Source: a virus
Virus genome (UHGV): UHGV-1579666
DNA length: 17,021 nucleotides
Strand: one strand, 5' to 3'
This document shows, piece by piece, positions 1,927 through 7,895 of this stretch; position 1 is the first letter of the stretch; each line of letters opens with the position of its first letter. The notes beneath the pieces were generated by a model. It saw only the letters and a program-made list of their open reading frames with translations. It was not told where the DNA came from and made no database searches. A program made the position numbers and the translations under genes.

Positions 1927-2220
1927 TTATTGTGAGCAATACACACGCGCTTCCAGCGGAGTATAAATGCCTAAAGTAATAAAACCGAGCAATCCATTTA
2001 CGAATGTTTGCTGGGTTTCTGTTTTAACAACATTTTCTGCGCCGCCACAAATTTTGGCTGCATCAACAGTTTTCTCCTGTCCAATTCCCGAAACGAAGAA
2101 GTGATGGGTGATGGTTTCCTTTGGTGTTACTGCTGTCGGTTTGTTTCCAACAGTAAACGTCTGTTGAGCACATCCTGTAATAAGCATTGCCAGAGCGGCA
2201 GAAAACAACATTTTTTTCAT
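1927..2220 (-). CDS. bor: Bor outer-membrane lipoprotein (serum-resistance lysogenic conversion protein), 97 aa
   Basis: Minus-strand ORF; start taken at MKKMLFSAALAMLITGC (lipobox LITGC) with an AGGA Shine-Dalgarno upstream. The ORF track's longer 113-aa version has 16 extra N-terminal residues and no better ribosome-binding site. Confidence 0.9.
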   Translation of the reverse strand: MKKMLFSAALAMLITGCAQQTFTVGNKPTAVTPKETITHHFFVSGIGQEKTVDAAKICGGAENVVKTETQQTFVNGLLGFITLGIYTPLEARVYCSQ

Positions 2221-2578
2221 CTTATTATCCTGCATTGTTAAAAACGGCAGAATCCTATGTGACAACAATTAAACGATAGTTAAATGGATTGATGAAAATT
2301 AAAACTATATAGGTGTACGCTCAGACTATTGGAGGAAGTTGGGGACACTCAGAATCCTGTGGAATGAAATAAACCGCTCTATCAGTCTATTACCCTTTTA
2401 GCTGCGCTGTATCGTCGCCGTATTCCCGCATTAACCATGACCGTAGCCCGACGGGGAATTCCTTCTGCGTGAGTGTGCGGGAATAATCAAAAACGATGCA
2501 CACCGGGGTTACCGGGTACACATATTTCATCATGCCAGCGAGTCCGGTTCTGGCACGGAAGAAACCGGACGTTATGAT

Positions 2579-2989
2579 TTAGTGCGGAAATATTTGTGTA
2601 GTGTTCTGAATGTTCTCAGTAAAGAGTAATGAATTATCAAAGGTATAGTAATACCTTTTGTTTTCGTGGATATTTGTAATCCATCTGAAAACCCCTGCTG
2701 TAGCAAGATTTTTCCTGTATTCGTAAAATGATAACTCTCCTGATTTGAATCCTTTTAAGGTGGCTTCTATAAGGCATTTATTTTTTGAAAATCTTACATT
2801 TACAACCTTACCCTGTCCTTTTATTAAAACCGTATTATCGTTTTCAAGAACAAGATGAATATTCTCTGTGGCTAAATAGTAAATGTAATGTGAGACATTG
2901 TGACGTTTTAGTTCAGAATAAAACCAGTGATAGTTTAAATTATTTCGCACTTTATCGAATATTTGTTTAAAAATGGCAACCTGAGCCAT
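2579..2989 (-). CDS. Hypothetical AT-rich accessory protein, DUF1398/YbcV-like (family assignment from memory); about 136 aa from the second Met
   Basis: Minus-strand ORF 2579-3004. A GGAAGG Shine-Dalgarno precedes the second ATG (protein [14 protein letters not shown]...), so start placed at 2989; the first ATG at 3004 is also possible. N/K/Y/I-rich composition. Confidence 0.6.
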
Positions 2990-3046
2990 TGTAGTACCTT
3001 CCATGTGATATGAGGGTACCTAGTCTGCACGATTATCTAAATTGCT

Positions 3047-3280
3047 TCAATCTGGTCTGACCTGCTTTCTGAGCAATTCAGTAATGTCACTCTTTTCTTT
3101 GTTTGCTTCAGGCGAAACTCTTTTTTCTGAGCACAGTCTCCGGCGGCAGGCTTCAATGACCCAGGCTGAGAAATTCCCGGACCCTTTTTGATCAAGAGCG
3201 ATGTTAATTTGTTCAATCATTTGGTTAGGAAAGCGGATGTTGCGGGTTGTTGTTCTGCGGGTTCTGTTCTTCGTTGACAT
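3047..3280 (-). CDS. Small basic protein with a ribbon-helix-helix-like core, YlcI/DUF3950-like (from memory); putative DNA-binding regulator
   Basis: 77-aa minus-strand ORF with a basic N-terminus (MSTKNRTRRTTTRN) followed by IRFPNQMIEQINIALDQKGSGNFSAWVIEACRRRL, which has the strand-helix-helix pattern of Arc/CopG-type proteins. Lies 42-57 nt upstream of the DUF1398-like gene on the same strand. Confidence 0.55.
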   Translation of the reverse strand: MSTKNRTRRTTTRNIRFPNQMIEQINIALDQKGSGNFSAWVIEACRRRLCSEKRVSPEANKEKSDITELLRKQVRPD

Positions 3281-3449
3281 GAGGTTGCCCTGTATTCAGT
3301 GTCGCTGATTTGTATTGTCTGAAGTTGTTTTTACGTTAAGTTGATGCAGATCAATTAATACGATACCTGCGTCATAATTGATTATTTGACGTGGTTTGAT
3401 GGCGTAGATGCACGTTGTGACATGCAGATGATAATTATTATCATTTTGC

Positions 3450-3668
3450 GGGTCCTTTCCGGCGATCCGACAGGTTACGGGGCGGCGACCTCGCGGGTTT
3501 TCGCTATTTATGAAAATTTTCCGGTTTAAGGCGTTTCCGTTCTTCTTCGTCGTAACTTAATGTTTTTATTTAAAATACCCCCTGAAAAGAAAGGAAACGA
3601 CAGGTGCTGAAAACGGGCTTTTTGGCCTCTGTCGTTTCCTTTCTCTGTTTTTGTCCGTGGAATGAACA
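3450..3668 (+). other. cos: cos region: cosQ (GGGTCCT, 3450-3456), cosN (3480-3491), cosB with R3/I1/R2/R1 elements (about 3492-3668)
   Basis: GGGCGGCGACCT at 3480-3491 is the lambda 12-nt cohesive-end sequence; GGGTCCT lies about 24 bp upstream; repeated CGTTTCC-type elements in both orientations (about 3531-3549, 3589-3603, 3629-3645) flank an AT-rich stretch, directly upstream of Nu1. Confidence 0.9.
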
Positions 3669-4188
3669 ATGGAAGTCAACAAAAAGCAGCTGGCTGACAT
3701 TTTCGGTGCGAGTATCCGTACCATTCAGAACTGGCAGGAACAGGGAATGCCCGTTCTGCGAGGCGGTGGCAAGGGTAATGAGGTGCTTTATGACTCTGCC
3801 GCCGTTATAAGATGGTATGCCGAAAGGGATGCTGAAATTGAGAACGAAAAGCTGCGCCGGGAAGTTGAAGAACTGCGGCAGGCCAGCGAGACAGATCTCC
3901 AGCCAGGGACTATTGAGTACGAACGCCATCGACTTACGCGTGCGCAGGCCGACGCACAGGAGCTGAAAAATGCCAGAGACTCCGCTGAAGTGGTGGAAAC
4001 CGCATTCTGTACTTTCGTGCTGTCGCGGATCGCAGGTGAAATTGCCAGTATTCTCGACGGGATCCCCCTGTCGGTGCAGCGGCGTTTTCCGGAACTGGAA
4101 AACCGACATGTTGATTTCCTGAAACGGGATATCATCAAAGCCATGAACAAAGCAGCCGCGCTGGATGAACTGATACCGGGGTTGCTGA

Positions 4189-4214
<26 letters not shown>
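3669..4214 (+). CDS. nu1: Terminase small subunit Nu1
   Basis: 181-aa ORF beginning MEVNKKQLADIFGASIRTIQNWQEQGMPV (winged helix-turn-helix N-terminus), immediately downstream of cosB. Confidence 0.95.

Positions 4215-7895
<3,681 letters not shown>

Follow-up and report, generated by a model that had tools for sequence, protein, structure and literature searches.

At the classical Fur promoters (fhuF, entC, fepA-fes, cir, and iucA), a box of very high information content that follows the 19-bp and 7-1-7 consensus, with overlapping sites 6 bp apart, lies over the mapped −35 and −10 elements of an iron-uptake gene, and repression has been measured. Host Fur also reads iron on phage DNA; the stx1 promoter of Stx1-converting lambdoid phages reportedly carries a Fur box, and iron-regulated expression of the toxin is said to have been shown. 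The feoABC operon is FNR-activated and Fur-repressed, with boxes for both regulators in a single intergenic region. In lambda itself, the described cos subsites are cosQ (R4), cosN, I2, and cosB with its IHF site I1; the role of cosQ in packaging termination is taken here from published cos papers.

Two Fur sites of K-12 lie in defective prophages with truncated packaging genes and are named after the downstream gene: nohB (now nohD) in DLP12 and nohA in Qin. The nohB site, at 579824, has 25.3 bits and four overlapping Fur sites within 28 bp and is the third strongest of 363 K-12 Fur clusters (Chen et al. 2007, PMC2189734). The nohA site, at 1634624 and position −233, has 22.3 bits, and an oligonucleotide carrying it was shifted by 150 nM Fur (PMC2189734). 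As cited in that study, the nohB site was detected by Fur titration (FURTA; Stojiljkovic 1994), and an in vivo selection for Fur binding yielded the Sau3A fragment that carries nohA (Vassinova & Kozyrev 2000). Of the 42 strongest Fur clusters, 39 overlap predicted sigma-70 promoters, and for some very strong ones (oppA, acnA) microarrays showed no effect of Fur (Chen et al. 2007, PMC2189734).

The window studied here, the whole stretch of 17,021 bases, carries a palindrome of this kind a few base pairs upstream of cosQ (Table 1). It is orthologous to the DLP12 and Qin sites, which lie at the same distance from the small-terminase gene (−233) and from cosQ and have the same FNR box; unlike them, it adjoins Nu1, A, and the downstream head and tail ORFs. 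It resembles the classical Fur promoters in consensus, overlapping sites, and information content but differs from them in that it has no conserved promoter overlap, the mapped transcription start sites (TSSs) lie upstream of it, and its neighbor is a packaging signal. As at feoABC, FNR and Fur boxes occupy one intergenic region. Whereas the stx1 box is at a toxin promoter, the window box is at cos. Like the cos subsites, it is fixed in the cos block, and it would be bound by a host protein as I1 is by IHF; in contrast to them, it is not listed as a subsite and is absent from some working lambda-type cos sites.

Table 1. Features around the cos-adjacent palindrome of the window, and box sequences of other phages
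Feature	Position	Strand	Remarks
bor-like lipoprotein gene	1927..2268	−	Pfam PF06291, E = 9.9e-31
DUF1398 gene (YdfO/YbcV-like)	2579..3004	−	Pfam PF07166, E = 3.3e-43
DUF3950 gene (YnfO/YlcI-like, 77 aa; earlier "RHH-like")	3047..3280	−	Pfam PF13132, E = 5.4e-21
Perfect FNR box TTGATGCAGATCAA	3341..3354		Center 3347.5; between DUF3950 gene and Fur box
Rightward promoter	3373..3385	+	−10 CATAAT 3373-3378, TSS equivalent 3385; second TSS equivalent 3349
Promoter-like match GTGACA-16-TATCAT	3417..3444	+	10 of 12 matches; −10 within palindrome
Extended conserved footprint TG-n-A-R-n + TGATAAT-Y-ATTATC-R + TTT	3423..3446		From 49 distinct cos-adjacent sequences
Fur-box palindrome ATGATAATTATTATCAT	3428..3444		Perfect 8-1-8 palindrome, 17 bp, center 3436; 7-1-7 core TGATAATTATTATCA at 3429-3443; 19 bp identical to DLP12 nohB/nohD site
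cosQ (GGGTCCT), packaging termination signal	3450..3456	+	Identical to annotated cosQ of phage 434
12-nt cohesive end GGGCGGCGACCT inside cosN	3480..3491	+	Lambda/434 right ends stop at ...GGTTACG
Nu1 small terminase gene, homolog of nohA/nohD	3669..4214	+	Pfam PF07471, E = 2.4e-101
Box of phi80, TGATAATTATTATCA			Just upstream of cosQ
Box of HK225, TGATAATTATTATCG			Just upstream of cosQ
Box of 21, TGATAATTATTCTCG			Just upstream of cosQ
Box of PhiR12_1, TGACAATCATTATCA			Just upstream of cosQ
Box of N15, CGATAACTATTATCG			Just upstream of cosQ

The Palindrome and Its K-12 Counterparts

Where they share sequence, the region has 94.5 to 99% identity with lambda, 434, HK629, DE3, and many new Escherichia phages, and we assign the window to a lambda/434-like phage with apparently intact packaging and head genes. 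Virion DNA would have its right end at 3479. Farther right, at 3583 to 3650, the cosB region upstream of Nu1 contains a long inverted repeat; its sub-threshold matches to Rfam miRNA families are spurious, and it probably reflects inverted terminase-binding R sites.

The first-pass annotation had described a perfect Fur-box-like 7-1-7 palindrome about 150 bp from the start of an RHH-like gene and 6 bp before cosQ, and the match is borne out, as is, in essence, the geometry. The palindrome core is the sole exact match in the window to TGATAATnATTATCA, agreeing at 14 of the 14 specified positions of the 7-1-7 form; this is the Baichoo-Helmann unit, which was confirmed by Chen et al. (2007, PMC2189734). 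It is also the one exact match (zero mismatches) to TGATAATNATTATCA among the 17,021 bases. The start codons of the minus-strand DUF3950 gene (ATG at 3280) and of Nu1 (ATG at 3669) are 156 and 233 bp, respectively, from the palindrome center, and the gap to cosQ is 5 bp from the 17-mer, or 6 bp from the 7-1-7 core. GATAAT hexamers occur within the palindrome on both strands (plus, 3430 to 3435; minus, 3442 to 3437), and the window sequence around the box reads ...gacatgcagATGATAATTATTATCATtttgcGGGTCCTttcc... The 19-bp Fur consensus GATAATGATAATCATTATC is matched at 16 of 19 positions on the minus strand, where the 19-mer is CAAAATGATAATAATTATC, and at 15 of 19 on the plus strand.

With up to three mismatches allowed, the window contains four matches to TGATAATNATTATCA vs. 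0.41 expected, and none of 200 shuffles reached four; two of the four are the palindrome itself and an offset of it. Across 1.27 Mb of related phage and prophage DNA, in which matches with up to three mismatches have a background rate of 1.8e-4 per position, those with zero or one mismatch are found exclusively beside cos sites. On the shuffles and on this exclusive placement, a chance AT-rich palindrome is rejected.

We aligned the window without gaps to lambda, 434, and the K-12 prophages DLP12 and Qin. The 19 bp centered on 3436 are identical in the ylcI-nohD intergenic region of DLP12, the "nohB" (now nohD) Fur site, and the published coordinate 579824 converts exactly onto the palindrome center. 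The 434 palindrome is also identical to that of the window. The lambda palindrome, ATGATAATCATTATCAC at 48451 to 48467, differs from that of the window at two bases of the 17-mer, the central one (3436) and the outermost one (3444), and the ynfO-nohA intergenic region of Qin is identical to this lambda variant. The palindrome is unannotated in both the lambda and the 434 sequence records. In the model of Chen et al., the window/DLP12 variant scores above the nohA variant (25.3 vs. 22.3 bits); the lambda/Qin variant is the one that was shifted, and a literature search returned no EMSA report for the window/DLP12 variant. In Table 4 of Chen et al. 2007 (PMC2189734), nohB is printed at −133, while its coordinate of 579824 converts to −233 from the nohD start; the entry is probably a misprint or reflects an older start annotation.

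Because the orthologous DLP12 and Qin sites are published Fur targets, binding of Fur to the palindrome is as good as shown, and the window copy, by its identity with DNA of published binding, almost certainly binds Fur. The best explanation of the palindrome is a genuine high-affinity Fur operator, the counterpart of the nohB/nohD and nohA sites. As a Fur site it is already known, having been in the literature since 1994 under the names nohB and nohA. The earlier suggestion that this might be an AT-rich element that only looks like a Fur box fails, as identical DNA binds Fur, although its packaging-linked part is kept alive by the conserved position beside cosQ.

Conservation of the Box with cos

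Among close relatives the whole of 3280 to 3520 is nearly invariant, so that conservation within this class is uninformative; the segment is present in 4,412 of 5,426 complete E. coli genomes (∼80%), in up to eight copies. We collected diverged cos regions of the lambda type and searched IMG/VR and GTDB genomes for a cosQ...cosN pattern. Contexts were defined as clusters of the −150 to −30 flank, which gave 28 contexts from 128 cos sites.

The box is carried by 102 of the 128 cos sites and by 20 of the 28 unrelated upstream contexts, against a chance expectation of ∼0.002 per context, and in the box-bearing contexts the gap between box and cosQ is 3 to 8 bp with a mode of 6 bp. Lambda, 434, 21, phi80, N15, and HK225 all have it within this range, and Citrobacter and Trabulsiella prophages also carry a cos-adjacent box. 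In the phages that share it (phi80, HK225, 21, PhiR12_1, and N15), the DNA farther upstream is unrelated. A plus-strand gp59-like gene ends at the box in N15 and phi80, the upstream neighbor in HK225 is Rz, and other contexts have other ORFs; a minus-strand DUF3950 gene is the upstream neighbor in only 3 of the 20 box-bearing contexts. Homology with Stx1a phages begins at window position 3423, which is the left edge of the box.

The position frequency table of the 49 distinct sequences behind the conserved footprint (Table 1) shows a strongly conserved TG 6 bp farther left of the 7-1-7 core. This extra TG fits a second, overlapping Fur dimer site, and the footprint as a whole fits two or more overlapping Fur dimer sites.

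Since the box occurs without the bor-DUF1398-DUF3950 cassette (N15, phi80, 21, HK225, and others) and always with cosQ and cosN, it belongs to cos and not to the cassette. Judged by its distribution, it lies outside the cassette and, of the conserved elements in the lambda-type cos module, farthest to the left. The question of whether the site is conserved at this position in lambda and its relatives is thus answered in the affirmative for lambda and most of its relatives, and the proposed Fur control of the locus is left standing in part: Fur binding is upheld, the DLP12-identical core and the Qin variant being published targets by titration, selection, and gel shift, whereas the accessory cassette as its target finds no support, many contexts having the box alone. 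No paper containing both "cosQ" and "Fur" was found in the searchable literature, and the link of the box to cosQ, its conservation across lambda-type phages, and its prevalence appear to have gone unremarked so far.

Two further observations were made in the scanned genomes. In a Citrobacter meridianamericanus prophage (L134, ∼4210 to 4280), the cos-adjacent box is preceded upstream by more Fur-box-like stretches, ATGATAATCAATATTGA and AATAATCATT, suggestive of an extended Fur cluster. Lambda-identical cos segments are present in unrelated assemblies (L135-L138, L142, L143, L146, and L149-L152, all genome_contigs) of Shewanella, Oceanobacillus, Raphidiopsis, Archangium, and MAGs, one of them on a contig of 48,542 bp with ∼1x coverage; they have the look of contaminating lambda, phi80, or cosmid DNA rather than of genuine prophages.

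cos Sites without the Box

The box is not present in all functional lambda-type cos sites. It is absent, with cosQ and cosN kept, from 4A7, Gifsy-1, Enterobacter phage MStein-2023a, Enterobacter prophages, and satellite-like elements. One box-less class has instead a strong intrinsic terminator, GGCCGGAGAAATCCGGC followed by T8 (−18.8 kcal/mol), directly before cosQ. The class is represented by locus L020 (positions 4120 to 4165) and by some 10 further IMG/VR loci; with genes for a Pox_D5-like primase, SSB, and homologs of capsid proteins E and D, L020 looks like a capsid-forming phage satellite. A terminator at the position of the box points to a shared job, that of stopping rightward transcription.

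A T-run ending 2 to 4 bp before cosQ recurs across classes: TTT in the Fur-box class (in the window the run is at 3444 to 3447), T7-8 in the terminator class, T6 in Gifsy, and T5 in L082. It may be a cos-related feature of its own.

Transcription around the Box

Plus-strand TSSs of the DLP12 region, mapped by Cappable-seq in MG1655 grown in M9 glucose, were converted to window coordinates by gap-free alignment. The starts at U00096.2 579773 and 579737 correspond to 3385 and 3349, and the next plus-strand TSS lies beyond nohD. The equivalents of 3349 and 3385 are the sole mapped plus-strand starts able to feed nohD, and both are upstream of the box, by 43 to 87 bp; relative to the 3385 start, the box spans +43 to +59. 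For the GTGACA-16-TATCAT match that runs into the palindrome, no plus-strand TSS is mapped in DLP12 by Cappable-seq, and the match is not conserved in lambda or in other contexts. Scanning for promoter hexamers across contexts returned weak, nonconserved matches, as is expected given that GATAAT resembles a −10 element; on the minus strand, a weak arrangement of TCGCCG, TTGCCG, or TTGCCA, a 16- to 18-bp spacer, and GATAAT recurs wherever the box is present. We found no published report of a Fur- or iron-dependent RNA change for nohA/nohD, ynfO/ylcI, or ydfO/ybcV. The neighboring genes are not mentioned in the article of Beauchene (2015), and published boric-acid, microaerobic, and copper studies contain nothing relevant to them.

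The perfect FNR box is centered 88.5 bp left of the Fur-box center, an arrangement shared by DLP12 and Qin, and the box or a one-mismatch variant occurs in all three DUF3950-type contexts. The same FNR 24-mer is a target of FNR by ChIP-chip and gel shift at nohB and nohA/ydfO, and a nohA/B::lacZ fusion had low activity with little fnr dependence (Grainger et al. 2007). Myers et al. (2013) class nohA as FNR-bound but masked by Fur repression, the category that they also give to feoA; the geometry in the window would fit the leftward DUF3950 gene better. The FNR box is suitably placed for a class II promoter of that gene, with a candidate −10 GACAAT at 3319 to 3314, a TSS near 3306, and the ATG at 3280. 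It is the FNR box, rather than the Fur box, that accompanies the DUF3950 gene. In Table 4 of Myers et al. (2013), the FNR ChIP-seq summit for nohA, 1634625, falls on the Fur-box center, 89 bp from the FNR box; we attach no meaning to the offset, a possible cause of which is that uniquely mapped reads pile up where Qin and DLP12, near-identical in this region, differ, mainly around the Fur box.

The chances seem to us evenly balanced that the function of the box is that of a transcription gate that, depending on iron, keeps non-late transcription out of cos and the terminase genes. With sufficient iron, dimers of Fe2+-Fur would occupy about 3423 to 3446, cover the −10-like hexamers within the box (GATAAT on both strands, TATCAT), and act against the weak rightward promoter(s) with TSS equivalents at 3349 and 3385 as a roadblock placed at +43 to +59. 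Transcription that is not Q-antiterminated would then fail to cross cos into the terminase and head genes (Nu1, A), and iron starvation would open the gate. We infer the effect of binding on transcription, its direction, and the benefit to the phage. This is the most economical model because the mapped TSSs are upstream of the box and a terminator occupies the same place in box-less cos sites; the independent listing of nohA as Fur-masked (Myers et al. 2013) also speaks for it. On the other side, late, Q-modified transcription must read through the site anyway, the promoter hexamers near the box are weak and not conserved between contexts, the lacZ fusion has low activity, and some very strong Fur clusters are without microarray effect. 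A purely transcriptional role also leaves the constant distance of 3 to 8 bp from cosQ unexplained.

Other Readings of the Box

The distance to cosQ is what a role in packaging would account for. The box would then be a functional part of cos, with Fur, or the AT-rich palindrome and T-run themselves, slowing, marking, or bending the DNA as the motor arrives from the left and so improving cosQ recognition and cosN cutting. The spacing in 20 of 28 contexts, centered on 6 bp, and mosaic junctions that abut the left edge of the box (Stx1a, 3423) are consistent with this, and mutations that slow packaging suppress cosQ mutations. The box is also the same in lambda, 21, N15, and phi80, whose small-terminase specificities differ, and its ligand must therefore be common to all four. 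The phi80 record places the box inside its "cosQ; aka R4 region" feature, and the minimal cos inserts of the Feiss laboratory (lambda 48446-182) contain it. Against these points, the box is missing from 4A7, Gifsy-1, Enterobacter phages, and satellite-like elements despite intact cosQ and cosN, and spacings differ by as much as 5 bp, roughly half a turn of the helix. Saturation mutagenesis reportedly limited cosQ to 7 bp. The published cos papers examined name only cosQ, cosN, I2, and cosB, and fur is unmentioned among the host genes of a genome-wide Keio screen for lambda infectivity. Overall, we consider a packaging role unlikely.

A leftward promoter under the box is similarly doubtful. Here the box would be the operator of a promoter with its −10 GATAAT at 3442 to 3437 on the minus strand and its −35 in the cosQ-cosN spacer, which would place DUF3950-DUF1398(-bor) under iron control. 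The weak minus-strand arrangement recurs wherever the box is present, the right half of the box, ATTATC (the complement of this −10), is slightly better conserved than the left half, and in the window the minus strand carries the genes left of the box; biologically, it would be sensible for lysogenic-conversion genes to be induced under iron-limited, anaerobic conditions. The −35, however, matches at three of six positions in the window, and a candidate FNR-dependent promoter of the DUF3950 gene itself lies 130 bp nearer to it. A plus-strand CDS immediately precedes the box in N15, phi80, and related contexts, which would make the transcript antisense; in HK225, Rz and the box have no such cassette between them, and a search upstream in the 21-type contexts found none either. 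No supporting expression report was found in the literature; as for leftward starts at the box, the mapped TSSs cover the plus strand of the DLP12 region. A Fur-controlled cassette promoter fits the window but not N15, phi80, or HK225.

We regard it as very unlikely that the box is a decoy, by which hundreds of replicating genome copies titrate Fur and derepress host iron uptake to the benefit of the phage; in lysogens, the many lambdoid prophages would be extra Fur sinks. The nohB site was found by titrating Fur at high copy (FURTA, as cited in PMC2189734) and ranks third among K-12 Fur sites (PMC2189734), and the segment is as widespread and as repeated in E. coli genomes as described above. 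Titration, though, needs no fixed position next to cosQ, and there is no experimental hint of it. A cell holds thousands of Fur molecules, for which one site per genome copy may be too few.

That the palindrome is no Fur site at all, and is instead an operator of the DUF3950 protein, a putative RHH protein, or an RNA hairpin or weak terminator, is barely credible. The palindrome and T-run do fold as RNA (−6.3 to −8.1 kcal/mol, z about −3), and in another class of cos sites a true terminator stands at this position, but it is the primary sequence and not the pairing that is conserved (1.2 to 2 bits per position, no covariation). The stem is nearly all A-U rather than G+C-rich and was not called by a terminator scan, by which an intrinsic terminator is rejected; with no Rfam match, a weak A-U hairpin, and no covariation, an RNA element is rejected likewise. 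The DUF3950 sequence and its single-sequence AlphaFold model show a beta-alpha-alpha-like order at low confidence (pLDDT 54); no PDB relative was found, nor a BLASTP alignment to P22 Arc, so that the RHH fold proposed in the first-pass annotation is unconfirmed. Most box contexts have no DUF3950 neighbor (it is present in 3 of 20), and this missing co-occurrence speaks against the operator for that protein that the same annotation had offered.

Meaning for Lambda-Type Phages

One of the strongest E. coli Fur sites thus lies a few base pairs from cosQ in lambda itself, a context that is undiscussed in the Fur literature and unmentioned in the cos literature. The distribution of the box indicates that selection has kept it beside cosQ across lambda, 21, phi80, N15, and many prophages. 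There is a slim chance that the lambda-type cos module includes the Fur box as a working part, rather than the box being an ordinary gene operator, and that iron would thereby be coupled to packaging, terminase gated, or Fur titrated. If so, Fur bound 5 to 6 bp before cosQ might slow or mark the incoming motor at termination, or gate terminase expression and so the cutting of cos in lysogens; in another version, replicating phage copies would titrate Fur and reprogram the uptake of iron by the host. Whichever version holds, lambda DNA maturation would involve a host metal sensor whose participation has so far escaped notice. An old oddity, that "Fur regulates a phage packaging gene," becomes three testable questions in the best-studied phage: whether iron or Fur gates transcription into the terminase operon, whether it affects the termination of packaging, and whether Fur is titrated during phage growth. 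The link to cosQ, the conservation, and the prevalence of the box are a modest but real reason for follow-up in lambda.
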